The notes below the pieces were generated by a model, which was not told the origin of the DNA, ran no database searches, and worked only from the letters and a program-made list of their open reading frames with translations. The position numbers were made by a program, and so were the translations under genes. A DNA stretch of 64,000 nucleotides from Candidatus Melainabacteria bacterium 17Bon1m (GTDB taxonomy: Bacteria; Cyanobacteriota; Vampirovibrionia; Obscuribacterales; Obscuribacteraceae): contig JAVLKG010000001.1 of NCBI GenBank assembly GCA_032128875.1, forward strand, positions 32,001 through 96,000. Direction: 5' to 3'. Positions 1 to 13,256 of the stretch are shown piece by piece (within the stretch, counting starts at the first letter, position 1; each line of letters starts with the position of its first letter).

Positions 1-1
1 A

Positions 2-385
2 ACCCGTACTGATGCAAGCGGCAAGGTGATTCAAAAACTCAATCCTGCTATTTCCGAAGAAAAGATCCAGGGCGGTCGCTATGTCTATGACGCTAACAAT
101 CAGCCTGTGCGTGTAGCTCGCCTGAGCGAAGGTGATGCGAATTGCGGCAAGGAAAACATCTCCAATCCGGGCAATCGCCGCACTGAATGTAACTGGCTCG
201 TCGATGACAGCTCTACCAAGATGACCTACTCGTACAACCAAACATACGACCGTGGAGATTTGCGTAGCGTCATTCGTGTGGGTGAAACACCGAAAGCGGT
301 TGTTCATCAAATTCCTGAGTACGACAAGCAAGGCAATTTGATTGGCGTGACCACAAGCATCAGACCGGTAATCGTTAAAAAATAG
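2..385 (+). CDS. Hypothetical protein, probably the 3' part of a gene entering from the left edge
   Basis: The frame of ORF 26..385 is open back to position 2; no recognisable domain. Confidence 0.6.
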   Translation, partial: TRTDASGKVIQKLNPAISEEKIQGGRYVYDANNQPVRVARLSEGDANCGKENISNPGNRRTECNWLVDDSSTKMTYSYNQTYDRGDLRSVIRVGETPKAVVHQIPEYDKQGNLIGVTTSIRPVIVKK

Positions 386-440
386 CCGCGCCCTATGCGC
401 ATAAAATAGCCGCACATAGCATGGCAGGATACAGGTAATC

Positions 441-519
441 GGCGGAACGCGACCACTCGTTCCGCCAATTACTTTGCGAGCCAAGCAAACTGGCGAAACG
501 CGACCACTCGTCTCACCAA
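441..519. repeat. Two degenerate copies of a ~28-bp REP-like hairpin
   Basis: GGCGGAACGCGACCACTCGTTCCGCCAA (441-468) and GGCGAAACGCGACCACTCGTCTCACCAA (492-519), between convergent genes. Confidence 0.65.
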
Positions 520-679
520 CGACTTGGAAGAAATCCGTTTTAGTCGCGAGGCGTTCATCAGTGTATGTCCTGGCACCGCATTTTAAGTCGGTAGCGCCTC
601 TATCACCGCTCCGCTCGCGAACGATTTAATACTAGTGGTCCAATGTTGCCCGAAGGTTGCCAAATTTTGAGTCCTTTTC

Positions 680-3640
680 CTACGCGCGGTTGGGGAAGAA
701 GACTGTGAACGTTGCGCCATTGCCTGTTGAGGAAGTGACGGTAATACTTCCGCCGTGCGCTTCTACAAGCATTTTGCAAATGTGCAGCCCCAGCCCAGCC
801 CCCGCGATTGGGGCGGTTGTTGAGCCTGTGTGTTCAGAGTTGGAGTCATTATCCTGGCGAACCTTTTTTGTTGCTTGTTCGAATTTTTGGAATATCTTTG
901 CTTGATCCTGTTCGCAGATTCCCGGGCCTTGGTCTGCCACACTGAGTCTGACTCCCGAGCCTTCCCTGTTCGCGCTTAATATTACCTGGCTGCCGTTGGG
1001 TGAAAATTTGATGGCGTTGCTTACCAAATTGACCAGAATCTGAAGAACTCTTTCGCGGTCGCCATATGCTTTGAGGTCTGATGGTTCGTTCACCAGTTTT
1101 ATCGATTTAAGGTCGGCGAGCAATTGCAAGGCAGTAATGGTCGAGGAGAAGACATCATTTACCGCAAACTCTGAAGCGTTTAACCGAAGTGAATTCTTGT
1201 CCAGCATCTCAATATTGGTGAGGTCATCGACAAGCGCACCGAGGCGGCTGAGTTCTGTCACTGCGTTGCGAATGTTGGTAGCGGCTTTGTCCGGCAGAGG
1301 TTGGTCGGAAGTTTCAAGGACTTTCGCTATTTCCTCACTTGTTTCCAAAATAGGATTCTTCAATTCTTCGCGCAGCAGCGAGAGAAGTTCCAGCCTTTGA
1401 TTTTCCAGCATCCTCAGCTCGAGCGCTGAATCGTAAATGTATTTGTCGAGCAATGCAATTTCATCTGTACCTCTCTCAGGAGCTTGAAGCGGTTCGGCGC
1501 TGTTTAATCGCTTTGCGTTGCCGATTGCGTTGTATAAATGCATTGTCAGTAGACGGCTTAGCAGTCTGTTTGCGAAGACTGTGCTTACAGTCACCATCAG
1601 AATTCCAAGCAACAAGATTGTAATCGCTTTCTTGCGATCGCGTAATTCTGAAGAGCGGTCATCTAAGAGCAATTTCTCTCGCTCACGAACGAGCCGTGTC
1701 CGGTAGAAATACATCTCTTCCGGCAGGCCCTGTCCTATTGACGGTAAGGCATTGAATCTGTCCTTTAACTCGTGTGATTCTGAAGTGAGAAAGCCCTGCT
1801 CAGTTGTTTGAATGTCTTTCATTTGCTTTTGCAAACGTTTGAGCATTTCTTTCTCTTCTTGGTCAGAACCTTGCTCAAATATTGCGGCCAGCTTATTCAA
1901 GCTGGCTTGGGTGGCTGCAACATATTGCAGCCTGCGCACAGCAAACTCCGCGCTTCTGGTCATGTTGAACATCATGGTGCAAATGCCGGAATACATGTGT
2001 CCGGCGTGAATGTTGTTGAGGTATTGAAGAATTTGATATGAGCGATATTCTCTTTGAATTTCGTTTTGCGAACTGTCAATCATTTGGCTGAGCATCCATA
2101 GCATGGTGCAGCAGATGATTGCAGGCACGATAATCAACGCAAGACCTGCTTCTGCGATTCTGGAGCGTTTTACCGAGAATTCCGTGTTAACAGGGCTCGC
2201 AGGATTTGCTGGATTCAGACGATTCACATGATTTGCAGAACCATTACTTTCACCAGTTGATTTTGGCGTTTGACCGCCTGCTGGTGCTGTTTGCTTGGGA
2301 AAAATCAGAGTTGTCTGTTCTGTCTCTGCACCAATAGCAATACCGCATTTTTCAGCCAGAGTTGCTGCCAGAGAGGCTTTAATTCCTTCGTGGTATGCGC
2401 CTCCCTTGTGTAATGCAGGTGCAATAGTCACGGCAAGCTGATCGTATTTGTCAGTCGTGAATGCTATTGTGCTTTTCTCTTGAAGCGACAAGCATGCGAT
2501 TATGCGCGCTGCAAATTCCAGATCTGAGCAAAACTCCAAGTCCAAGTCGTCATTGGAGAAGTGTAGCGAGTCTGGCTTCAACTGTCTTTTTTCTTGCAGC
2601 AGCTCTATCAATTCTGCAAGACTGTATCTATCGAAGTGGAGATTGAGCTTGTCGGCTTTCGCGCGCTCGAGGTCCAAAACATCATTTACGAGAGTAGCCA
2701 GGTCCTTGCATTTTTCTACTGGTCGGGCGAGTATAGCATTTGCTTTATCGCTGATTTGACCATATGCGCCATCTCTCGCGAGCGTGAGAATACCGCCGAT
2801 TGATGTTAGGGGGGCGCGCAGATCGTGGCTTACCGCTTGGATCAAATCTTCCTTGAAGTTGCGCAGGCTGAACAGTTTTTCTGCTGAAACTGCAATAGCT
2901 TGATCTAGCTCGCTAAGCTCATCTTCGCCACCTAAAAGTGAATGAGGCTTTTGGCCTGATTTTACCTGGTTGACGTGAGCGTAAATTTTGGTTAGGCGAA
3001 AGAGCAAAACCCGCGAACCCCAGAGTGCTGTCAATCCAGTCAATGCAACGCAGATTGCGAAAAATAGAGAAATGAGTTTTCTTATCTTCACGGAATGGCC
3101 GGAGAATGATTCTTGCGTTACGGGCTCAGTGCGCAACTTCTCAAAGCAGGTACCCATAGGATTTAGCCACTGATTGACCGACACATAGATTTGGGCTTTT
3201 AGAATCGGATTGAGTTCGTTGTTGAAATAACTAACAGCATCTTTTCGCATCAGCAAATAAACGCCGTGGTTGCACTGGTCGATTCTTCTCAGCAGTAGCT
3301 CTGTATCACGGGCATACTCCGGATGATTGCGCGTGAGCTCTGTCAGCGCCTGTTTCTTTTGAAACACTTGCTGCATAGACCAGTTGTACCGCTGTGATAG
3401 CTCTGGGCGCTTTGTGATGCTGTAGAAAAACGAAGTGTAAGCGCTCTCGATATGCACGCGCTGCAGGTCGTCGAGAACAGCTAGAATCCGCCGTCTGTAC
3501 ACGAGGTCGGCGAGGTTGTTGTTGACTTTACTAACTTCTCGGTAGAGAAATGCACTTATGCCGATTTGGAAAACCAGAGGCGCTACGATCAGAATCAGGA
3601 GTTGGTCGCGAATCTTTAGTTTTGGAAGCTTTAGATTCAC
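680..3640 (-). CDS. Membrane sensor histidine kinase with an internally duplicated sensor-HAMP-HisKA-HATPase architecture
   Basis: H-box VSHDLRAPL; C-terminal HATPase NLVSNAIKFS/DQGPGI/GAGLGL; four TM segments. GTG at 3640, just after the response regulator stop, is preferred over the overlapping TTG at 3691. Confidence 0.85.
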   Translation of the reverse strand: MNLKLPKLKIRDQLLILIVAPLVFQIGISAFLYREVSKVNNNLADLVYRRRILAVLDDLQRVHIESAYTSFFYSITKRPELSQRYNWSMQQVFQKKQALTELTRNHPEYARDTELLLRRIDQCNHGVYLLMRKDAVSYFNNELNPILKAQIYVSVNQWLNPMGTCFEKLRTEPVTQESFSGHSVKIRKLISLFFAICVALTGLTALWGSRVLLFRLTKIYAHVNQVKSGQKPHSLLGGEDELSELDQAIAVSAEKLFSLRNFKEDLIQAVSHDLRAPLTSIGGILTLARDGAYGQISDKANAILARPVEKCKDLATLVNDVLDLERAKADKLNLHFDRYSLAELIELLQEKRQLKPDSLHFSNDDLDLEFCSDLEFAARIIACLSLQEKSTIAFTTDKYDQLAVTIAPALHKGGAYHEGIKASLAATLAEKCGIAIGAETEQTTLIFPKQTAPAGGQTPKSTGESNGSANHVNRLNPANPASPVNTEFSVKRSRIAEAGLALIIVPAIICCTMLWMLSQMIDSSQNEIQREYRSYQILQYLNNIHAGHMYSGICTMMFNMTRSAEFAVRRLQYVAATQASLNKLAAIFEQGSDQEEKEMLKRLQKQMKDIQTTEQGFLTSESHELKDRFNALPSIGQGLPEEMYFYRTRLVREREKLLLDDRSSELRDRKKAITILLLGILMVTVSTVFANRLLSRLLTMHLYNAIGNAKRLNSAEPLQAPERGTDEIALLDKYIYDSALELRMLENQRLELLSLLREELKNPILETSEEIAKVLETSDQPLPDKAATNIRNAVTELSRLGALVDDLTNIEMLDKNSLRLNASEFAVNDVFSSTITALQLLADLKSIKLVNEPSDLKAYGDRERVLQILVNLVSNAIKFSPNGSQVILSANREGSGVRLSVADQGPGICEQDQAKIFQKFEQATKKVRQDNDSNSEHTGSTTAPIAGAGLGLHICKMLVEAHGGSITVTSSTGNGATFTVFFPNRA

Positions 3641-3644
3641 TACG

Positions 3645-4322
3645 CTAGCTCTTGCTATTGATCCGATAACCCAAGCCTTTGGATGTTTCAATGAAAGATG
3701 CCTGACCTTCGACGTCCATTTTTCTTCGCATTTTGGTAATGCAACTGCGCAGTGCTACTTCCGTTGCTTCTGAATCAGTGTCCCAAACACGCGCCATCAG
3801 TGCTTCTGCTGTGAAATAGGTGTCTGGGTGACGCATGAGAAATTCGAGCAGAGCGAGTTCGCGTGGTTGCAACCTTACAAGAGAATCGCCGCGTTTCACC
3901 ACACCGGAATTGGTATCAAGCTGCATTCCCGCGATGTTTAAAACATCATTTGTCATTTGCTGTGGGCGTTTCAACAAAGCCTTCACGCGAATAACCAACT
4001 CTCGGACATCGAATGGCTTTGTCAAATAATCATCGGCACCGACTGCAAAACCTTTTTCCTTGTCGTCCATAGATGCGCGAGCAGTCAGGAAAAGGACTGG
4101 AGCCTGTTCGCCCTGATTACGAAAGTGTCCGCAAAGTTCGATGCCTGACTTGTGCGGAAGCTCCCAGTCGAGCACCAGCAATTCATAGCTGCCTGCGTCG
4201 ATGAAAGCCATACCGCTGCGACCGTCTTCGCACTCGTCGACAACGTGACGTTCAGCCTGCAGCGTGTCTTTCACCAGCTGTCGCAACATCGGGTCATCTT
4301 CGACTATAAGTATCTTAGCCAT
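3645..4322 (-). CDS. OmpR/PhoB-family DNA-binding response regulator
   Basis: ILIVEDD, LDWELP, GADDYLTKPF, and a winged-helix end IETSKGLGYR. Confidence 0.95.
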   Translation of the reverse strand: MAKILIVEDDPMLRQLVKDTLQAERHVVDECEDGRSGMAFIDAGSYELLVLDWELPHKSGIELCGHFRNQGEQAPVLFLTARASMDDKEKGFAVGADDYLTKPFDVRELVIRVKALLKRPQQMTNDVLNIAGMQLDTNSGVVKRGDSLVRLQPRELALLEFLMRHPDTYFTAEALMARVWDTDSEATEVALRSCITKMRRKMDVEGQASFIETSKGLGYRINSKS

Positions 4323-4396
4323 AAAGTATGTTTAGCACAGATTTATACTCTGATTAGTGAAAGTTTTCGTGTTTCTAACTATGCAATTTCTCTACC

Positions 4397-6412
4397 CTAA
4401 TGAGACCGCTTAACTTCGGTTAGCGGCCAGATCTCACACATTTCTTTTTCGAGCTCCGGCGTGATTTCTTCAGGAAATTCCGGTCGATATCGGAGGTTCA
4501 TAGTTTTCAGCACATCAATCGCGTCTCTGACGGTGACTCCGCATTTGTCCACAGCGATGGACTGAAGGTTTTTTAGAGGAGTCAAGTAAGCCAGTCCTTT
4601 CTTGGTGATTTTGAGGTTGTAGCCAATATTGAGTTCTTGCAGATTAGGCATCGTTGCTAGATCTTTAAGGTCTTCATCACACACATCCGAGCCTGTAAGC
4701 GATAGAAAGTGCATTGACCTCGAACCTTTGAGCGCTTTGATTATTTTGCCGCCTTCTCTCAAGTGACAAGCCCTCAAGAACTCTAGATGCTTGATGCAAT
4801 CCATGTTGTTGAGACCTTTCCATGTGACATCTGTTCCGTCGATATTCAAAGACTTGAGAGGCAGCGTCTTGATGTAGCCGAGTCCGGTGTCAGTGATTTT
4901 GCAATTTTTGATGCCCAGTCCTTTGAGCTTTTTGAGGTGGCTGACATACACCATCTCATCGTCTGAGAGCGGCGCTTGCGCTGTGATTTTGTATGCGTAC
5001 CCTGCGTCGGTCAAACTGGCATCTTTGAAGTCTAATATCGCGATGTCGTCCTCCGCGAAGTTGTTCATGAATTGTGGGTGTGAAAGAAAAAGAGAGTTAG
5101 GGACAAACTGCAATTCCCTGTCAGCCGAGATCGTAACTAGCCCTCTGGCATCTTTAGTCACGCGCTGCCCTTGTGCGGTGAAAACAATTCGCCCAATTGA
5201 GAAACTCTCGGGAAAGTTGAATATGCGAAACTTTCCGTCTTGCGAAATTTTTGACCAGGGCAATCTCGGTAAATCCGGTGCATGTTCAATTGGCTTTTGG
5301 GATTGCATTTGGTTGTAGCAAACTATTGCAAGCATGCCTAAAACACCGGTGAAAAGAACGCATGCTGCGATGAGAAGATACTTTGTTTGCGGATTTGTTT
5401 GTCTTTTTTCCGGCACCACGACAGCTTTGTTGAGAATGGCGGTGCCTGTTAAACCCTTTTGAACACCAATTAGAATTTGCGCGACATCGAGCAAGCTTTG
5501 AATGCGTTTGTCCGGATCTTTTTCCAGCATGTTTGCAACGAGGCTTTCGACTTCATCCGGAAACTCTCTTCCCATCGAAGCTTCTTTCAGTGTGAGCGGC
5601 ATCTCGCTTTGATGTTTCATTATCGTCGCGATGGATGTTTCACCAGAAAAAGGTGGAGCACCCGTCAACACCTCGAACATCACACAACCCATAGAATAAA
5701 TATCCGAGCGATGATCGACTGTTTTGCCAAGGCATTGCTCTGGGCTCATGTAGAAAGGGCTGCCAAAGATTTCTCCGGTGCGTGTCAGCGAATCTGTTTC
5801 GTTGAGTCCGCGGTGCAAAAGTTTTGCAATCCCGAAATCGAGAACCTTCACATGTTCGTTTTCAGAATCGATGCCCGGTGTTGTTAGCATGATGTTGGAC
5901 GGCTTAATATCGCGATGAACGATATTGTGATTGTGTGCGTATCCCAGCGCGAAGCACAGCTCGACGAAGATCTTGATTGCCACATCGAGTGGCATGACGC
6001 CGGCTGTTTTCAAAACTGACGACAGCGTTCTACCTTGGACAAAATCCATTACCAGAAATGGTTTTACATTGTCGATAAAACCGAAGTCCCGGACCTTCAC
6101 CAATCCAGGATGGTCGAGTTTTGCCAGTAATTTCGCTTCAGCGTGAAAACGCTTGATTGATGATTCTGAAAACTCCGTGCCGGCAAGAGTTTTGAGCGCC
6201 ATCTGTCTGTTGAGCAAGACTTGCTCTACTTTGTAGACAACTCCCATGCCGCCTTCGCCAATGCTGTCGACCAGGCGGTATTTGCCTTCAACCATTGTGC
6301 CGATTGATAGCGATGAGCCAGGCATTTTGCCAAACGGATTCGAAGCGTCAAGTGTGCGCTCGTCGCTTGTCTCGCCTTCCCAGCTTTTGTTCGTCTCGTC
6401 GTTTGGCGGCAT
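4397..6412 (-). CDS. Hanks-type Ser/Thr protein kinase with a TM helix and extracytoplasmic leucine-rich repeats
   Basis: GEGGMGVV, HRDIKPSN, DFG, GSPFYMSPE; hydrophobic segment YLLIAACVLFTGVLGMLAIVCY; LxxLxLxxxxIT repeats. Confidence 0.93.
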   Translation of the reverse strand: MPPNDETNKSWEGETSDERTLDASNPFGKMPGSSLSIGTMVEGKYRLVDSIGEGGMGVVYKVEQVLLNRQMALKTLAGTEFSESSIKRFHAEAKLLAKLDHPGLVKVRDFGFIDNVKPFLVMDFVQGRTLSSVLKTAGVMPLDVAIKIFVELCFALGYAHNHNIVHRDIKPSNIMLTTPGIDSENEHVKVLDFGIAKLLHRGLNETDSLTRTGEIFGSPFYMSPEQCLGKTVDHRSDIYSMGCVMFEVLTGAPPFSGETSIATIMKHQSEMPLTLKEASMGREFPDEVESLVANMLEKDPDKRIQSLLDVAQILIGVQKGLTGTAILNKAVVVPEKRQTNPQTKYLLIAACVLFTGVLGMLAIVCYNQMQSQKPIEHAPDLPRLPWSKISQDGKFRIFNFPESFSIGRIVFTAQGQRVTKDARGLVTISADRELQFVPNSLFLSHPQFMNNFAEDDIAILDFKDASLTDAGYAYKITAQAPLSDDEMVYVSHLKKLKGLGIKNCKITDTGLGYIKTLPLKSLNIDGTDVTWKGLNNMDCIKHLEFLRACHLREGGKIIKALKGSRSMHFLSLTGSDVCDEDLKDLATMPNLQELNIGYNLKITKKGLAYLTPLKNLQSIAVDKCGVTVRDAIDVLKTMNLRYRPEFPEEITPELEKEMCEIWPLTEVKRSH

Positions 6413-6553
6413 AGTGCTCCGCGGTGAGATTCCAGCCTTTCTGAAAGCCAGGCTTCGAACAGATTCTTTATACCCGCCTGTAGCCTATTTACGCCCCTTA
6501 ACTGTTGTATGGTACGTTACTTAGAAGTACTGGCTTAGAAGACCGGGGCCGGA

Positions 6554-7510
6554 ATGAAGCTGATAAATAAAGCCGAAACTGCATTTTTGGTCGCGTTGCC
6601 GCTTGCTTTCATATGGGTTTTGTTTTTTGTGACCCTGCCCGCATCAGCCGGCGATAAACCAGTGGTTTTGAACTTTCCCAAGCCTGCCATTGGGCGATAT
6701 TGCATTATTCGAACTGCGAGAGATCCTATGGACGACACTATAGTTCGCCGGGACGATTGGGCGACCGGACGAATTACTGTGCCGCCAGGTTGCTTGATGA
6801 GTCTGACGCTAAACTACAACGGCGGGCAAAATACAAAATTTCTCCGCACCCTGCCTCCTGGCACTCTGCGCGGTTTGGTATGTCGAGATTTGGAAATTGA
6901 TGACAAAGCAATTGCGGACATGTGCACTCAAAAAGGCCTTGTGATACTCAATTTGCAGGGCGTGGACCTTACAGACCAAGGCGCAAAGCATCTCAGTCCG
7001 TTGAAAGAGCTGCGGAAGCTGAGCCTTTGCGACACGCTGGTAAGTCCGAAGGGCCTTGCGGTGCTGCGCAACATGCCCTTGTTGCACAACCTGAACCTCT
7101 CGCGCCTGGCACTGGGCGAAGCTGTGGATAAACCCTTAGAGCCGTTGAAAAACCTCTTCTTGCTTGAGTTGACAGGGACACAGTTGACGGACAAAGCTGT
7201 GATTGAGCTGCCTTTCTTTCCGAAGTTGCAATCTCTTGTTCTTCGCCGCAATAACTTGACGGATAAGTGCATTGATTCCTTGCGCAAGTACAAAACATTG
7301 CGCTCGCTGGATCTCACCGATACCAATGTGACAATTGAAGGATTGAAGCGATTGAAAGCCTTACCGAAATTGCGTGACGTTACTGTTCGAATGAGAGATA
7401 TTAAGACTGCAGACAGAGCTCAGTTGAAGAAATTGATGCCGCGTGTGGAGATTCACGATGGTTCGCGCGAGCAGGTCGTTCCGACCGAAATATTTGCCCC
7501 ACTGCACTGA
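6554..7510 (+). CDS. Secreted or anchored leucine-rich repeat protein
   Basis: N-terminal signal ending ASA; about 6 repeats such as LRKLSLCDTLVS and LRSLDLTDTNVT. Confidence 0.85.
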   Translation: MKLINKAETAFLVALPLAFIWVLFFVTLPASAGDKPVVLNFPKPAIGRYCIIRTARDPMDDTIVRRDDWATGRITVPPGCLMSLTLNYNGGQNTKFLRTLPPGTLRGLVCRDLEIDDKAIADMCTQKGLVILNLQGVDLTDQGAKHLSPLKELRKLSLCDTLVSPKGLAVLRNMPLLHNLNLSRLALGEAVDKPLEPLKNLFLLELTGTQLTDKAVIELPFFPKLQSLVLRRNNLTDKCIDSLRKYKTLRSLDLTDTNVTIEGLKRLKALPKLRDVTVRMRDIKTADRAQLKKLMPRVEIHDGSREQVVPTEIFAPLH

Positions 7511-7591
7511 GCTGTTGAACTAGAAAGAGAGTTGTAAATGTGCAACAATCATCGCTGGTTTGAGCGTTGGTGGCTATTGCCAAAGGAAGCT

Positions 7592-8539
7592 ATGAGAATA
7601 AATTTGCTGAGCTCGTGCTTGATTTCACACGCTCTTTCTTGTTCCCTCGTTTACGCAAAAGATGCTGCTCCAGCAGAAGCAATAGGCACCGTGAATGGTG
7701 TCAAGATAAAGATGCAACCGCAATTTCAAGAGGTTAACGATAAGTTTCGCGAGCTGTACTCCGAAACCCGCACACGGACAATAAAGAAGTCTCAGCCGAT
7801 TATCGTAGCCGTCAATGATGTGCTTAGTTTGCACGATGGTTCGACCAAAGAAACCACGCAAATAATTTCGGAGAAGTACACACTTCTGAAATCGGTAGAC
7901 CACATTGTGCTGGCTACTTTTGTTGCGCTGGAGCTTGACGCGGATCAGATTCTCAGTGAAGTGAAAGTAAAACAGATTCAGGAATTGAAGAGGCTTTCCG
8001 AGAAAGCGTCGGCATCTTTGGATGCAACCGGACTCAAAGGCGATTTGCTAGAACGGCAGAAGCAGTTGATCAATATGTCTCTCAAGTTTCAGAGTACAGT
8101 GATTGCAGAGCGGCGTGTTACTGCTGATGCATTGACCTCTTTCTGTCGCGACAGCGAGAAGATGGTTATGCAGAATGTTGATGATGCTGTAGCCGACCAA
8201 TTGCTTGCAATTGATACTCAGGTGCGGCAATGGCGAAAACAGCTAGGAGCTGAGCGCTGGGAAGGGTTGAATGTTGTGGTTGTGAGCGGACATATGCCGC
8301 GCGAGCGCAATACCACCATGCAGTATTTTGGAAAATTGTTGAAGGTAAAACGAGAGGGCGCGCGCCTCTATTACTGCGAAGGTCTATCAGAAGAGTCTGA
8401 CGGGTTAAACCTTGTTGGCACGCATATTCTCGACAGGAAAATTGCGGTCGCGTTTTTCAAAGATGAATGGCGTATGCACCGTGATTTGCTCAGTGACGGC
8501 GCAGCGAAATACTTGAGTAAGCACCCACCGCTGAAATAG
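7592..8539 (+). CDS. Hypothetical exported protein
   Basis: ATG at 7592 preceded by AAGGAAG; signal-peptide-like N-terminus; long helical ORF. Confidence 0.7.
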   Translation: MRINLLSSCLISHALSCSLVYAKDAAPAEAIGTVNGVKIKMQPQFQEVNDKFRELYSETRTRTIKKSQPIIVAVNDVLSLHDGSTKETTQIISEKYTLLKSVDHIVLATFVALELDADQILSEVKVKQIQELKRLSEKASASLDATGLKGDLLERQKQLINMSLKFQSTVIAERRVTADALTSFCRDSEKMVMQNVDDAVADQLLAIDTQVRQWRKQLGAERWEGLNVVVVSGHMPRERNTTMQYFGKLLKVKREGARLYYCEGLSEESDGLNLVGTHILDRKIAVAFFKDEWRMHRDLLSDGAAKYLSKHPPLK

Positions 8540-8628
8540 TTCAAGGGCGAAGTAATTCTGTAAGCCACCTGCTTAGTTTAGCTATGAAATTTTCTCTGAA
8601 ACTTAGCTATGCAATTTAGCTTTGTAAA

Positions 8629-9696
8629 TTAGCGGCCTCTGAATCCGCCGCGTCTGCCGCTTCGACCTTCGGCTCCGCCGAGGCGCCCGCCGCCGTTATT
8701 TGCGCCGCCGAAACGTCCACCACCTTCGTTTCCGCCACCAAAACGACCGCCATTGGCGCCCTGGTTAAGCGCCGCACCCTGGTCGTTTCCATCGCGGTTT
8801 CCGAACCTTCCGCCCAAACGTCCGCCGCTATCTCCGTCATTGCCCTGACCGCCCTCTGCGCCGCGACCAAATCTGCCGCCGGTGCGTCCGCCGCCTTCTG
8901 CCTGCTCGCTGCCTTCGCGATTACGCATACCATTCATACCGTTTGCAGCTGCTGCGTCCTGCGCATTGTTTGCGCGCTGCCCATTCGCTTGATTAGCCCA
9001 TTGATTGCGGTTTTCCCAGTTGCCTTGCTGATTCCACTGGTTCATTACGGCAGCATTTTTTTCGCTGTTGTTGACATAAACTTGATTGCCACCGGCGTTT
9101 ACATAGTAGGGCTTGTTGTTTGTGGCATTGCGATACATCGGAACCCCGTAAGGCACTCCGTGATAGTAGTCATTGTTGTTGTACATAGAATTCGAAATTG
9201 CCGCGCCGGCCATTGCTCCTCCGGCAGCTGCCAGTCCTGTCCCCACCATTCCCATACCGCTGCTACTTCCTGAATTTCCAGAACCCGAGTAGTAGTTGTT
9301 GACTTGCTGCGGCTGCGATTGCTGCTGTTGTTGCGGCTGCTGCTGAGCCCCATGTGACCCGTAGAGGCGGTTGAGGTAGCCTTGCAATTGTGCCGCGGTT
9401 ACTTCCACTGGTTGGTTGTTGCGGTCGGTGTACCAGTAATTGCTGGCTTGGTCGCGATAGATGGCAACTTGTTGTGTGCCGGGCGGAAGTCCAGCTCCGG
9501 GCAACGGCAGCTTCGGACCAGCTTTTGTCTGGACGTATTGCTGACCCGAGCTGTCTGTGACGACCTGGTAGAGAGTCATGCTGGTCTGCCCTACCGGTTG
9601 CGCATCTTGCTGCGCCATAACATCGACGGCGAATGTCAGAGACAGTGTGACTGCAAGACTGATTGCCAGAACGGTGGATTTTGTAATTCTTTGCAT
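8629..9696 (-). CDS. Exported low-complexity protein, Gln/Asn/Tyr-rich in the middle with a Gly/Arg-rich tail
   Basis: Signal peptide ending VMA-Q; poly-Q stretch; repeated GGRFGG. Confidence 0.75.
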   Translation of the reverse strand: MQRITKSTVLAISLAVTLSLTFAVDVMAQQDAQPVGQTSMTLYQVVTDSSGQQYVQTKAGPKLPLPGAGLPPGTQQVAIYRDQASNYWYTDRNNQPVEVTAAQLQGYLNRLYGSHGAQQQPQQQQQSQPQQVNNYYSGSGNSGSSSGMGMVGTGLAAAGGAMAGAAISNSMYNNNDYYHGVPYGVPMYRNATNNKPYYVNAGGNQVYVNNSEKNAAVMNQWNQQGNWENRNQWANQANGQRANNAQDAAAANGMNGMRNREGSEQAEGGGRTGGRFGRGAEGGQGNDGDSGGRLGGRFGNRDGNDQGAALNQGANGGRFGGGNEGGGRFGGANNGGGRLGGAEGRSGRRGGFRGR

Positions 9697-9842
9697 GGCT
9701 TTCTCTTTTGTGTAGTGACGTCGGTGAGCGTTTTCCTTTGTCGCCAGACGGCGATAGCTGCGATCACGTAGATCTTATCGATCGGATCGCTGAAAGGAAG
9801 TCCCCAGTTGCGCCATTATATCGCAAAAGTCTCGGCTCTTTG

Positions 9843-11579
9843 CTACCTCTGGGAGGCACCAGAAATCTTCTGTTTCAGAAGTTCGACTGCATTCTGGAGT
9901 TGAATGTCTTCATTCTTGCCGGAAGAGCGCTCGACCAGCTCGACGATGCCGTCTTTGAGCCTCTTTCCAATATTGATTCGCAGCGGAACCCCAATCAAAT
10001 CGTTGTCGGCAAACTTGAATCCCGGTCGCTCAGCGCGGTCGTCAAGCAAAACGTCGATTCCGCAAGACGTCAGGTCTTTATACAGCTTCTCGCCTGCGGC
10101 AAGAGCTTCTTCGTCTGCGCCATTGATGACGTTGACGATGACATCATAAGGAGCCAGGGCTTGCGACCAGACAATTCCCTTTTTGTCGTGGCTGCCTTCC
10201 ACTGCTGCTGCAAGCATGCGCTCCACGCCTATGCCATAACTTCCCATTACTATCGGTACTTTTTCGCCGGAAGAAACAAGCACGCTCGCGTCCATAGTTG
10301 TCGAATAGCGTGTACCAAGTTTGAAGATGTGACCGATCTCCAGCGATTTCTCGACTGCTAAAGTGCCACCACATTTGATGCAGGCATCGCCCGTCTTTAC
10401 GCTGCGAAAATCGCTCCAAGCTGTCGCCTCGATATCTCGCTCGATGTCCACGCCTTTGTAGTGGAAATCGTCATGGTTGGCTCCTGTCACCATATTAGAG
10501 CGACCTTTGAGAGCGCAATCAAGAAATATCTTTGTGATTTTGCCTTTCGCTGATGACGGTTTTACACCCACTCCTCCGAGCGAGCCGGCGTGTGCGCCCA
10601 TGGCGCTGAAAATCTCCTGCTCTTCTGCTGCGCGAACAGTTTGCGCACCCAAGAAATCCATGAGTTTGGTCGTGTTGAGCTCGTGGTCTCCACGCAGGAG
10701 CACAAGAACCAACTGATCGTCGGCAGAATAGACAAGTGTTTTGATCTGATTCTTCGCTGCTCCTATTTCTGCAAAGTTTGCTAGTTGCTCTACTGTTCTC
10801 AAACCCGGAGTCGGAAATTTTTCGAGTTGTGATTTCCCATTGCCAAAATCGTATTTGTCGAAAGCCGCAACTGCTTTCTCTACGTTCGCCGCGTAACCAC
10901 ACTCTTTGCACAGGACGACCATGTCTTCGCCTGCTTCGGTGAGCACCATAAACTCTGTCGAAGCACTTCCGCCCATTGCGCCAGAGCTTGCTTCGACTGC
11001 GACGAATTGCAAGCCGGCACGTCTGAATATCTTTTCGTATGCGGCTTTGTGCAGATCGAAACTTTTATCAAGTCCTGCGGAATCCACATCAAATGAATAC
11101 GAATCTTTCATTGTGAACTCACGCACTCTGAGCAAACCTGATTTCGGACGCAATTCATCGCGAAATTTTGTTTGAAATTGATACCAAATCTGCGGGAGTT
11201 GGCGGTAGGAGTTGAGAGCGTTTCGCGCGATTGAAGTAAAGACTTCTTCGTGCGTCACGCCTAGCACATGGTCAGAACCTTTGCGATCTTTGAGGCGAAA
11301 CATGATATCGCCCATAGTGCCCAGTCTTCCCGATTCTTCCCACAGTTCGGTCGGGTGCAGTGCCGGCAGAACAAACTCTTGTCCGCCAATGGCATTCATC
11401 TCTTCTCTTATGATATTTATGATCTTGAGACGTACCCTTTGGGCAAGCGGAAGCAGGCTATAGATGCCAGAACCCAGCGGGCGAATGTAACCTGCGCGCA
11501 TGAGTAATTTGTGGCTGGCTGTTTCAGCTGCAGCCGGATCTTCTTTCAACGTCGGAATGAAAAGCTGTGACCATCGCAT
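9843..11579 (-). CDS. proS: Proline--tRNA ligase, bacterial type with INS editing domain
   Basis: MRWSQLF start, QTKFRDELRPKSGLLRVREFTMKDSYSF, GHIFKLG, MGSYGIGVER. Confidence 0.98.
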   Translation of the reverse strand: MRWSQLFIPTLKEDPAAAETASHKLLMRAGYIRPLGSGIYSLLPLAQRVRLKIINIIREEMNAIGGQEFVLPALHPTELWEESGRLGTMGDIMFRLKDRKGSDHVLGVTHEEVFTSIARNALNSYRQLPQIWYQFQTKFRDELRPKSGLLRVREFTMKDSYSFDVDSAGLDKSFDLHKAAYEKIFRRAGLQFVAVEASSGAMGGSASTEFMVLTEAGEDMVVLCKECGYAANVEKAVAAFDKYDFGNGKSQLEKFPTPGLRTVEQLANFAEIGAAKNQIKTLVYSADDQLVLVLLRGDHELNTTKLMDFLGAQTVRAAEEQEIFSAMGAHAGSLGGVGVKPSSAKGKITKIFLDCALKGRSNMVTGANHDDFHYKGVDIERDIEATAWSDFRSVKTGDACIKCGGTLAVEKSLEIGHIFKLGTRYSTTMDASVLVSSGEKVPIVMGSYGIGVERMLAAAVEGSHDKKGIVWSQALAPYDVIVNVINGADEEALAAGEKLYKDLTSCGIDVLLDDRAERPGFKFADNDLIGVPLRINIGKRLKDGIVELVERSSGKNEDIQLQNAVELLKQKISGASQR

Positions 11580-11625
11580 AATGTGTGACCTCTGCGCGAA
11601 TTAGTTATTGGAAAAATGGTTCTGC

Positions 11626-11664
11626 AAAAGCGACCTCGTATCTCACGAGATCGAGCCTTGTCGC
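11626..11664 (-). terminator. Candidate attenuator terminator in the proS leader
   Basis: Minus-strand GCGAC-aagg-CTCG-ATCTC-gt-GAGAT-a-CGAG-GTCGC followed by TTTT. Confidence 0.55.
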
Positions 11665-11679
11665 ATCGGAACGCAAAGA

Positions 11680-11739
11680 CTAACCCGTGGTGCGAGGTCG
11701 CGGGCTAGGGGGTGGTCCGAATGTGACATGTGTATGCAT
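11680..11739 (-). CDS. Putative proline-rich leader peptide of proS (MHTHVTFGPPPSPRPRTTG)
   Basis: ATG at 11739, TAG at 11682-11680; five Pro codons (CCA CCC CCT, CCG, CCT) within seven codons, 100 nt upstream of proS. Confidence 0.65.
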   Translation of the reverse strand: MHTHVTFGPPPSPRPRTTG

Positions 11740-11745
11740 ACGTTC

Positions 11746-11774
11746 AGTTTTGACGACAGAAAAACTTCTGTCAA
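11746..11774 (-). promoter_or_regulatory. Sigma70-like promoter of the proS leader
   Basis: Perfect TTGACA (11774-11769), 17-bp spacer, weak -10 AAAACT (11751-11746), then 6 nt to the leader ATG. Confidence 0.5.
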
Positions 11775-11845
11775 TACTTTTTCGCCGTCTGCAAACGGTA
11801 GTTGTTACAAACCAATTCCGATTCCGAGCCGACCGCAAATCCAAA

Positions 11846-13030
11846 TTAGCGCATTGCATTGTCGAGATCGCGAATGGTGTAGTCGAGATCCTTTAGCTCG
11901 CGGTACGAGCTGTCGAGTTTGCTTTCGAGCGAACCAGCTGCGCTTGCAGCTTCGGAAGTGTTGTCGCGTTTCAATTCAGCGATACGCCGTTTTAAATCCT
12001 CGGCGTCTCGCGCTATAGCTTCATATTTAGCTTCTGCATTTGTCCTTTGAACTTTCAGCGTGTTGTATGTCTCCGGACTCAAGTTACTGGCTTCGGCCGA
12101 CTGCGAAGCGACGCTAGCCACTACCAGCGTCGTGGCTACAACTGCTATGTATGTTTGCAGCACTTCCTTAAAGCGCTTGCTGAATTTCGTTGGAGTCAGT
12201 CCGGCCAGACGCGCTTTCAGTGCATCGAGAATTGCGTGCCAGCCAGCCATCACCTCTGCCATCGCTTCTGTGGGCAGTTGGCTGTGAGTCAAAACGAGTG
12301 TTGTCTGATCGCCGACCGACGTGACTTGCATGGAGACTTGGGTGGCTTTGTCGCTCCCGGGCTCTCCCCATGAGTATGCCAAAGCACGCAGCGGATCAAT
12401 GAAGGTGACAGTGCCTTCGACGCTTTCGAACTTTCTGTCGCTTTCAACGTCGCTATTGTCGAATTGAAGTTTTACCTTGCCGCCGAACCGTTGGTCGATA
12501 CTTCCTTCGCCAAGCCATTCAGGCAGACATTCTGAGGACGTAAGATACTGCCAGACCTTCTCTATTGGAGCGGGTAGCACTCTCTCGAATCGGCATGTCG
12601 ACTCATCAATGATTTTACCGAGCTCGTTGATCATTGGAGCCGTCGACCCAATGAGCTTGGGCTCGTCTTTCGGCGGAGCAATAACAGTGACCTTGGTCGT
12701 TCCTGCTTCGTGTTTTGCTGTTGCCAAAAGTTGTTGTGCTTCCGCCAGCTCTGAGGCGTTTTTCGACAATAGTTTGTGTGCTTCTGCGATTTGCTGGGCG
12801 CTGTCGATCATGAGTTTGTGCGCGAACTCGCTCGTGTCCTTCATCTCTTGTATGTCTTTGCCCATCGTGACCATCGAGCCTTCGAGCGCGCTGACGCGTT
12901 CTAGCATATTGGCGTCGATTGCCGATTCTCCTTTCCCCTTTTTGTTTTCTATGTAAGCCATCAGCGGTTTTTTCATCACGATGGCAATCCAAAACAGCCA
13001 AAAGCCACCGACAGCAAGAATGCCTTCCAT
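11846..13030 (-). CDS. Membrane-anchored SRPBCC (AHSA1/START-like) domain protein with coiled coils
   Basis: RFERVLPAPIEKVWQYLT...W, TTLVLTH, GWHAILDAL; N-terminal TM. Confidence 0.85.
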   Translation of the reverse strand: MEGILAVGGFWLFWIAIVMKKPLMAYIENKKGKGESAIDANMLERVSALEGSMVTMGKDIQEMKDTSEFAHKLMIDSAQQIAEAHKLLSKNASELAEAQQLLATAKHEAGTTKVTVIAPPKDEPKLIGSTAPMINELGKIIDESTCRFERVLPAPIEKVWQYLTSSECLPEWLGEGSIDQRFGGKVKLQFDNSDVESDRKFESVEGTVTFIDPLRALAYSWGEPGSDKATQVSMQVTSVGDQTTLVLTHSQLPTEAMAEVMAGWHAILDALKARLAGLTPTKFSKRFKEVLQTYIAVVATTLVVASVASQSAEASNLSPETYNTLKVQRTNAEAKYEAIARDAEDLKRRIAELKRDNTSEAASAAGSLESKLDSSYRELKDLDYTIRDLDNAMR

Positions 13031-13217
13031 GGTTTGTCCTCGACGGAAAGATGAGATAGACCTTCTTCAGTATATGTATGGGTGCGTGATTGAAAAGTGA
13101 AGTCTTGTACTTTGTAACGCGGCAGGAGTGGGAGAAACCACACTTACCGGAGGCAGGCGTTTCCAGGCAAAAACCGGAAAGTTCCGCAGTGACTGCCAAA
13201 GAGCCGGGCGTGGTTGC

Positions 13218-13256
13218 AAAAAAGGAAAGCCCCGCAATCACTTGCGGGGCTTCCTT
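13218..13256 (-). terminator. Intrinsic terminator of the MBOAT operon
   Basis: AAGCCCCGCAA-tcac-TTGCGGGGCTT with an A6 run on the plus strand (U-tract on minus). Confidence 0.8.

Follow-up and report, generated by a model that had tools for sequence, protein, structure and literature searches.

Leaderless leader-peptide attenuators have been mapped by RNA-seq in Streptomyces lividans TK24, where they precede aminoacyl-tRNA synthetase (aaRS) genes in the pairs alaL-alaS, thrL-thrS, trpL2-trpS and leuL2-leuS and are also found before leuA, ilvBHC, trpE and metNIQ (PMC8079986). Here we describe a comparable element upstream of proS, the gene for prolyl-tRNA synthetase (ProRS), in Candidatus Melainabacteria bacterium 17Bon1m (Vampirovibrionia; family Obscuribacteraceae), using a 64-kb stretch of contig JAVLKG010000001.1 (hereafter the window) and the corresponding loci of its relatives. 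We consider it highly probable, from comparative sequence evidence, that this element is a ribosome-mediated transcription attenuator of proS, in which Pro codons read the supply of Pro-tRNAPro; our confidence in any particular antiterminated structure modeled for this genus is much lower. By analogy, the closest known kind is that of the leaderless aaRS-gene attenuators of S. lividans. The two share an open reading frame (ORF) at the 5' end of the transcript (here by prediction), an enrichment of cognate codons, hairpins and the matching aaRS gene downstream, with a U-stretch following the S. lividans hairpins in some cases only (PMC8079986). They differ in that the pair here is Pro/proS, neither proS nor proline being mentioned in the text of that paper; in that the host belongs to Melainabacteria rather than Actinomycetota; and in that the transcription start site (TSS), mapped there by RNA-seq, is placed here from promoter geometry (PMC8079986). 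Full-text literature searches, whose reach did not extend to supplements or to Lopatovskaya's 2010 survey of aaRS-operon attenuators and which do not prove absence from print, returned no proS leader-peptide attenuator and none in Melainabacteria. The element would be a textbook control device, on a gene (proS) and in a lineage for which the literature found contains no such case.

In Firmicutes, proS is preceded by T-box leaders, which bind tRNA directly and need no translation. The present element would share with them the induction of an aaRS when its tRNA is uncharged; unlike in Firmicutes, covariance-model searches of window positions 11400-12000, on both strands and at E ≤ 10, found no T-box, as a preliminary description of the locus had stated, and no other Rfam family, while nothing in the whole 64-kb window reached a gathering score. 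The pheM leader of E. coli is led by a Shine-Dalgarno (SD) sequence and carries Phe codons, in contrast to the apparently leaderless, Pro-codon leader found here. The Pro-codon leader ORFs mgtL and mgtP control genes of Mg2+ transport and virulence rather than proline charging, and they form part of long leaders that carry several signals. Both are known from Salmonella, where their Pro codons couple the status of Pro-tRNAPro or of elongation factor P (EF-P) to downstream transcription (PMC3641672), a coupling that the proS leader would share. With the gamma-proteobacterial pheST attenuator (E. coli pheM-pheST), treated alongside predicted trpS and leuS attenuators of Streptomyces in PMC1262725, it would have in common that classical attenuation acts on a synthetase gene rather than on a biosynthetic operon.

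Anatomy and conservation of the proS leader

All locus coordinates given here refer to the minus strand and to positions of the window. A predicted sigma-70-type promoter (11774-11746) comprises TTGACA as the -35 element (11774-11769), a 17-nt spacer and AAAACT as the -10 element (11751-11746), and is separated by six nucleotides, GAACGT, from an ATG at 11739. This ATG opens a leader ORF of 19 codons encoding MHTHVTFGPPPSPRPRTTG and ending in TAG at 11682-11680 (whole ORF 11739-11680). Five of its codons specify Pro and all five fall within seven codons, with each of the four Pro codons represented: CCA CCC CCT at 11715-11707, CCG at 11703-11701 and CCT at 11697-11695. Downstream lies a terminator stem-loop, CGAUCUCGUG-AGA-UACGAGGUCG (11653-11631; -11.9 kcal/mol), followed by a short U-tail of C plus UUUU (11630-11626). 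The SD sequence of proS, AGAGG, occupies 11593-11589, and proS itself (9843-11579, ATG at 11579) encodes a bacterial-type ProRS of 578 aa with an INS editing domain. Every coordinate and sequence given in the preliminary description proved correct, its 9-nt complementarity (taken up below) included.

Upstream regions were compared across 59 proS loci of the family, 6 loci of other families in the class and the 71 nearest non-family proS loci (L-numbers below denote collected upstream loci and g-numbers genera of the family). The detector used was blind to proline, consisting of an exact TTGACA, 16-18 nt, nAnnnT, 5-9 nt, an ATG and an ORF of 8-40 codons, at most 250 nt from proS. It matched 36 of the 59 family loci, in 12 of 17 genera and with 30 distinct peptides, and none of the 77 true outgroup loci. 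As run, the outgroup count was 1 of 79; the matching locus, L080, like L079, comes from a Melainabacteria record that duplicates family loci, and since both belong to the family they were removed from the count. There was no match among the nearest non-family loci (Actinomycetota, Myxococcota and others; L081-L152 without L102), where Pro-rich upstream ORFs (uORFs) at three loci were set aside as chance-like, being GC-rich and without the promoter plan. A metagenome scan for variants of the window's genus returned seven matches, of which four duplicated known sequences and three were chance occurrences in unrelated high-GC DNA. We regard the element as more than chance on the comparison across relatives, not on the single sequence. 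The contrast between 36 of 59 and 0 of 77 lends strong comparative support to the earlier proposal that a Pro-codon leader peptide and a terminator, probably in leaderless form, control proS; a Pro-rich uORF in relatives, the absence of which had been set beforehand as a refutation, was found at these 36 family loci.

The 36 ORFs hold two Pro codons at 4 loci, three at 7, four at 11 and five at 14. All 13 proS loci of the window's own genus carry the Pro leader unit; by genus, the element occurs at 13 of 13 loci of g1, 5 of 6 of g26, 6 of 7 of g13, 3 of 3 of g3, 2 of 3 of g46 and 1 of 2 of g11, and in single genomes of g4, g6, g7, g10, g31 and g33. Beyond clustered Pro, the 30 peptides have no common sequence, as the examples MIRFDYAPSPPVPFS, MTYAAHHRTAPPPPPSEQGACVACGTG, MFRNSTPPAPSNPTIPVG, MKSKRPQFPPPHFVDSIFEPSMRRI and MFKAMRTAPAPRQTSVKVADFERLL illustrate. 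When each of the 12 genera is represented by a single leader, 46 of the 271 residues are Pro (17.0%), whereas long ORFs of the genome contain 4.8%; Pro is the sole enriched residue, the next being His at 1.5x, and in 10 of the 12 representatives, the leader frame is richer in Pro than both off-frames. Within the window's genus, Pro9, Pro11 and Pro15 are invariant and the first six codons vary freely, while L012 has CCA CCC changed to CCT CCT (giving the run CCT CCT CCT) with Pro kept. All 36 elements also possess a terminator between ORF and proS, with a hairpin of -7.5 to -22.5 kcal/mol and a U-rich tail, the U-runs being longer in other genera than in the window. One further locus of g26, L031 (G043:C686:2528-2664), whose sequence reaches only 118 nt upstream of proS, shows in that part a terminator followed by a plain consensus promoter, TTGACA-16-CATAAT, and no uORF. 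The other five g26 genomes, unlike L031, carry the Pro leader, and this locus looks like a natural replacement of the attenuator by a plain promoter.

The same comparison bears on the start of the transcript. TTGACA is exact in all 36 elements, with spacers of 16-18 nt, and the -10 element reads CATAAT in 17. The distance from the -10 element to the ATG is 5, 6, 7, 8 or 9 nt in 1, 11, 10, 11 and 3 elements, respectively, and no consistent SD sequence lies between -10 and leader ATG among the 36. With the ATG only 5-9 nt past the -10 element, we infer that the AUG either coincides with the 5' end or lies no more than about 2 nt from it, so that the leader transcript, its TSS being placed by promoter geometry, is probably leaderless.

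RNA conformers and a model for read-through

The RNAalifold consensus of the 13 distinct leaders of the genus is the terminated conformer, comprising an extended 1:2 domain and the 3:4 terminator. Segment 1 (11727-11701), covering codons Val5 to Pro13, forms the 5' half of this domain, and segment 2, the 3' half, spans 11690-11660, of which the consensus pairs 11689-11660 with segment 1. The 5' part of segment 2, UCACGGGUUAGU (11690-11679), lies over the stop codon and can alternatively pair with the terminator 5' arm (11654-11643), constituting the 2:3 helix. In the loop of the 1:2 hairpin lies X, GCGACCUCG (11701-11693), which the preliminary description had named as the antiterminator arm, and which forms nine perfect pairs with Z, CGAGGUCGC (11638-11630), in the terminator 3' arm directly before UUUU (11629-11626). 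This complementarity is real, X:Z having 99.1% of cells paired over the 13 genus sequences; the corresponding figures are 99.1% for the terminator, 94% for 2:3, 84.6% for the inner 1:2 helix and 95.4% for the outer 1:2 helix. The locus was earlier likened to the trp/his/pheST layout. X:Z does not conform to it, since it engages the terminator 3' arm; the classical 1:2 and 2:3 pairings are nonetheless available through segments that had not been named. As modeled, the element shares with trpL, hisL and leuL of Proteobacteria the pairings 1:2, 2:3 and 3:4, regulatory codons in or before segment 1 and a stop codon at segment 2, and departs from them in having no SD sequence, an extra 9-bp 1':4 pairing (X:Z) that reaches the U-run, and a short U-run.

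For the naked RNA of the window (+1 to 11630), the minimum free energy of -37.8 kcal/mol corresponds to the 1:2 domain plus terminator, the 1:2 domain by itself folding at -18.8 kcal/mol; the conformer with the X:Z helix reaches -34.5 kcal/mol. A scan with a ribosome footprint of -15 to +12 around the A-site shifts this balance. An A-site anywhere from Gly8 to Pro10 gives, in place of the terminator, a single long hairpin whose inner part is 2:3 and whose outer part is X:Z. At all 13 genus loci, terminator probability falls to 0.00-0.01 with the A-site at Pro9 or Pro10; at Pro11 it ranges over 0.0-0.95, and at Pro15 and the stop codon it returns to 0.68-0.99 in 12 of the 13, the exception being L012, whose terminator was mis-delimited. 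In 11 of these 13 loci, no upstream segment pairs better with the terminator 5' arm than UCACGGGUUAGU does. Against dinucleotide shuffles, the segment-2 partner attains p ≤ 0.05 at 11 of the 36 loci (L015, L017, L019, L024, L047, L051, L053, L055, L060, L018 and L065), and segment 2 lies wholly under a ribosome parked at the stop codon at 20 of 36. The possibility that only 2:3 matters and X:Z is irrelevant was rejected: X:Z dominates the ensemble at Gly8-Pro10, and the synonymous positions of X are invariant in 12 of 13 genus sequences. As an antiterminator in its own right, X:Z fares less well. The pairing exists and contributes the outer part of the alternative hairpin; on its own it leaves a helix against the U-run, the complete helix ending there one base nearer than the terminator stem. 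Pairing of an oligonucleotide with a terminator 3' arm can reportedly trigger release by itself, as Yarnell and Roberts are said to have found in 1999, and for this reason we do not accept X:Z alone as the antiterminator.

In the attenuation model that we favor, transcription would start about 7 nt after the -10 element, placing the AUG at or beside the 5' end. A ribosome that translates the leader smoothly would reach the UAG and cover segment 2 (11690-11679), the terminator would form, and transcription would end at the U-run, about 50 nt before proS. Were no ribosome loaded, the 1:2 domain and the terminator would both form, again with termination. A ribosome stalled on Pro9-Pro13 would melt segment 1 and free segment 2, which could then pair with the 5' arm of the terminator while the 3' arm has still to be synthesized; RNA polymerase would read through into proS, and more ProRS would be made. 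X:Z would extend this antiterminator hairpin outward with the ribosome at Gly8-Pro10, its U-proximal pairs being covered from Pro10 on.

Several observations weigh against this model or weaken it. At the locus itself, AAAACT shares only 3 of 6 bases with TATAAT, and a consensus promoter scan of the window did not list the proS-leader promoter; a consensus terminator scan likewise passed over the leader hairpin, owing to its U-tail of only 4 U. The fold of the whole leader is only weakly better than shuffled sequences (z -1.62, with 12 of 200 shuffles equally good). Four RNA-labeled runs cover the stretch as contigs of 7-24 kb with flat depth, from which starts, ends and strand are unreadable. 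In the family, 22 of the 59 loci are without the element: it is absent from g5, g35, g40, g44 and all 14 loci of g32, where proS sits about 45 nt after a TPR-like gene. A test for covarying stems in relatives had been suggested. Within the genus, changes are one-sided and wobble-compatible, and shuffles equal the observed values, so that there is no discriminating covariation; genus variation being too small, no helix is favored by this measure. Against 200 dinucleotide shuffles, the segment-2 partner yields p values of 0.07-0.53 in the window's genus and is individually non-significant, and in the window the terminator state is more stable than the 2:3 state by 1.9-3.5 kcal/mol. A stricter proxy asks how probable it is that the four bases of the stem adjoining the U-run pair with anything (rows L019, L034, L047 and L055 being left out because the proxy positions fell outside the stem). 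It shows these bases paired at 0.7-1.0 at almost all ribosome positions in the genus, with a sole dip at Pro10/Pro11 that reaches 0.0 only in L005 and L011. Finally, L018, L063, L065, L047, L051, L058, L061 and L037 show no thermodynamic switch at all; regulation there, if any, would rest on kinetics. Folding with the ribosome-covered segment excluded, as suggested earlier, thus gives a terminator probability close to 0 with the A-site at Pro9 or Pro10 and of about 0.9 between Pro15 and the stop codon; the U-proximal stem, however, stays paired through X:Z.

Since the U-proximal stem remains paired, read-through in this genus would have to rest on kinetics or on steric exclusion. In route (a), a ribosome at Pro11-Pro13 would cover segment 1 and X, and a 2:3 helix formed ahead of the 3' arm would be retained kinetically, the terminator exceeding it in stability by only 2-3.5 kcal/mol. 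In route (b), the ribosome would be at Pro9-Pro10, at a distance of 0-3 nt from where X begins, and would sterically block the U-proximal X:Z pairs. The calculated cost of leaving five U-proximal bases open in the window changes with A-site position, from 12.5 kcal/mol at Pro9 and 7.9 kcal/mol at Pro10 to 1.9 kcal/mol at Pro11, then 3.5 kcal/mol at Ser12, 3.3 kcal/mol at Pro13 and 5.3 kcal/mol from Arg14 to the stop codon. Classical attenuator designs are, as modeled, cleaner in other genera than in that of the window: in L060, L066 and L067, the U-proximal stem is freed with the ribosome on the first Pro codons and re-forms afterwards.

The sensed signal and competing explanations

What the family conserves is Pro codon density rather than the adjacency of prolines. 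In five genus representatives out of 12, no two Pro codons adjoin each other (APAP, APSPKP, TPSP, APAPNPANP and APSAP), and no pausing was seen for RPAP in HisL reporters (PMC8129111). Taking these two observations together, the common signal is most likely Pro-tRNAPro supply, a charging signal that the identity of the controlled gene, proS, also fits.

A more elaborate possibility, which we judge unlikely, is a dual sensor that would respond both to Pro-tRNAPro charging and to polyproline/EF-P stalling, inducing an editing-proficient ProRS when proline is scarce. The window gene encodes such an enzyme, its product scoring 734.7 bits on NF006625 (cut-off 558) in a profile search, with the INS editing domain (PF04073) at residues 257-375. 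A second ProRS of the genome, of archaeal/eukaryotic type (TIGR00408, 595 bits, cut-off 437; G000:C8:116443-117858, L155), lacks an editing domain, and its gene is not preceded by a Pro-rich leader. With two ProRS genes and a Pro leader only on the INS-bearing one, the response would be one of quality control and not just of capacity, proline scarcity being the condition under which alanine mischarging of tRNAPro would be worst. At PPP, polyproline stalls arise once the third Pro codon occupies the A-site, and X:Z, by reaching the U-run, would narrow read-through to ribosomes at Pro11-Pro13, the PPP stall position.

We think it quite improbable that the leader is primarily an EF-P/polyproline-stall sensor, in which PPP would stall intrinsically and read-through would report EF-P or translation capacity. 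Adjacent prolines do occur (FGPPP in this genus, PPP in g26, PPPPP in g4), and the A-site with the lowest barrier in the window, Pro11, is the PPP stall position. Moreover, consecutive prolines in the HisL reporters gave pausing and read-through even in rich medium, in an efp-responsive manner (PMC8129111). Set against this are the five genus representatives without adjacent Pro, the silence of RPAP in the same reporters, the nature of the controlled gene and, within the window's own genus, L013, whose GPRPNPRP has no adjacent Pro. The earlier idea that PPP might report EF-P status is possible for this genus, where GPPP may add a dependence on EF-P, but adjacent prolines are not the feature that the family conserves.

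An element acting through RNA only, whether as a riboswitch-like or tRNA-binding RNA or as an operator through which ProRS would regulate itself, with the ORF incidental, appears very improbable. It would sit well with the very high nucleotide conservation within the genus, which extends to the synonymous sites of codons 13-16 and to some 20 nt past the stop codon, and with the stable 1:2 domain. Between genera, however, the nucleotide sequence is unrelated, while the start codon at +1, the in-frame Pro codons and the terminator persist; the synonymous changes of L012 preserve Pro, and the Rfam searches reported above returned no match. Hardly any more credible is an independent small gene (a micropeptide or small RNA) with its own terminator, proS being expressed otherwise or the uORF affecting only its translation: the hairpin and U-run do close a unit of about 110 nt able to stand alone, and L031 has a plain consensus promoter directly before proS, but the 46-nt stretch from the U-run to the proS ATG contains no promoter-like site, the terminator is placed some 35 nt ahead of the proS SD and leaves it unsequestered, the peptides are unconserved between genera apart from Pro, and the unit is single-copy and found only before proS, no other Pro-rich ORF having the promoter plan.

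Genomic context and related leaders

The genome amounts to 7.55 Mb in 35 contigs. Among 103 other genomes of the family, bacterial-type proS was detected in 58 (E ≤ 1e-60) and a family-I ProRS in 67. The notion that the attenuator marks a second, auxiliary ProRS was discarded, as family-I ProRS accompanies the element in 22 of 36 genomes and is present in 13 of the 22 that lack it, showing no association, in a tally subject to the incompleteness of metagenome-assembled genomes (MAGs). The window ProRS is 53-58% identical to enzymes of Actinomycetota, Myxococcota and similar MAGs and only 39-45% identical to those of other families in its own class, so horizontal acquisition of the bacterial-type proS is possible, judging from these identities and from its presence in only 58 of the 103 genomes.

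The left edge of the conserved proS unit, as delimited by comparison within the genus, is a motif, TGTAACAACTAC (11798-11809), about 25 nt upstream of the -35 element. As TGTAACAACTA/G it is found at 12 of the 13 genus loci (not at L013), also where the upstream gene differs, and may be a protein-binding site/operator or an UP-like element. The gene upstream of the leader in the window (11846-13224, minus strand) encodes a protein of 394 aa with an AHSA1/SRPBCC domain, a hydrophobic stretch at the N-terminus and a coiled-coil-like tail at the C-terminus. It is missing in L004, L005, L006 and L009, through an insertion or deletion of about 1.4 kb, and in these loci a strong terminator (window 13254-13225) directly adjoins the proS leader. 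The contigs of all four RNA-labeled runs begin 29-45 nt beyond window position 13200, at this hairpin; these starts, near 13229-13245, probably reflect an assembly break at an inverted repeat.

A genome-wide scan for the same architecture gave 12 candidates, of which the proS leader is the sole Pro-rich one. A scan independent of promoters recovered 437 Pro-rich short ORFs, 25 of them with a terminator and a downstream ORF; a regulon of Pro leaders was dismissed, as among these 25 the promoter plan occurs only at proS. Two other leaderless candidates resemble the proS leader in layout. A Leu-rich ORF, MQMNLATALLLSLGLDLGNLLLSEIT (9 Leu of 26), starts 6 nt after TTGACA-17-CAGAAT (G000:C14:10400-12600, L153) and has a terminator of -16.5 kcal/mol. 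This unit, a likely Leu attenuator, stands 39 nt ahead of a 582-aa gene from the 2-isopropylmalate-synthase family (best NCBIfam E 4e-91; equivalog cut-off not reached). The second ORF, MFNRSTTTMVMPMPSGRGEHLPHVRMSS, contains a Thr run and spaced Met codons (G000:C12:41300-43100, L154), and its terminator of -20.8 kcal/mol stands directly before a cystathionine-gamma-synthase-like gene (506 bits, cut-off 513). Its codon content makes a Met/Thr attenuator possible, one that recalls S. lividans metL (PMC8079986).

If the attenuation model for proS is true, proline and proS would join the short list of attenuated synthetase genes, which comprises pheST and the Streptomyces genes alaS, thrS, trpS and leuS, and the element would be the first leader-peptide attenuator reported for Melainabacteria/Vampirovibrionia, a group for which cultures are few and hardly anything is known of regulation. 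The roughly 30 natural leader variants, with adjacent or spaced prolines, form a series for separating Pro-tRNA starvation from EF-P-dependent stalling. Together with the proS leader, the Leu and Thr/Met candidates suggest that leaderless attenuators may be general in these bacteria, as they are in Actinomycetota.

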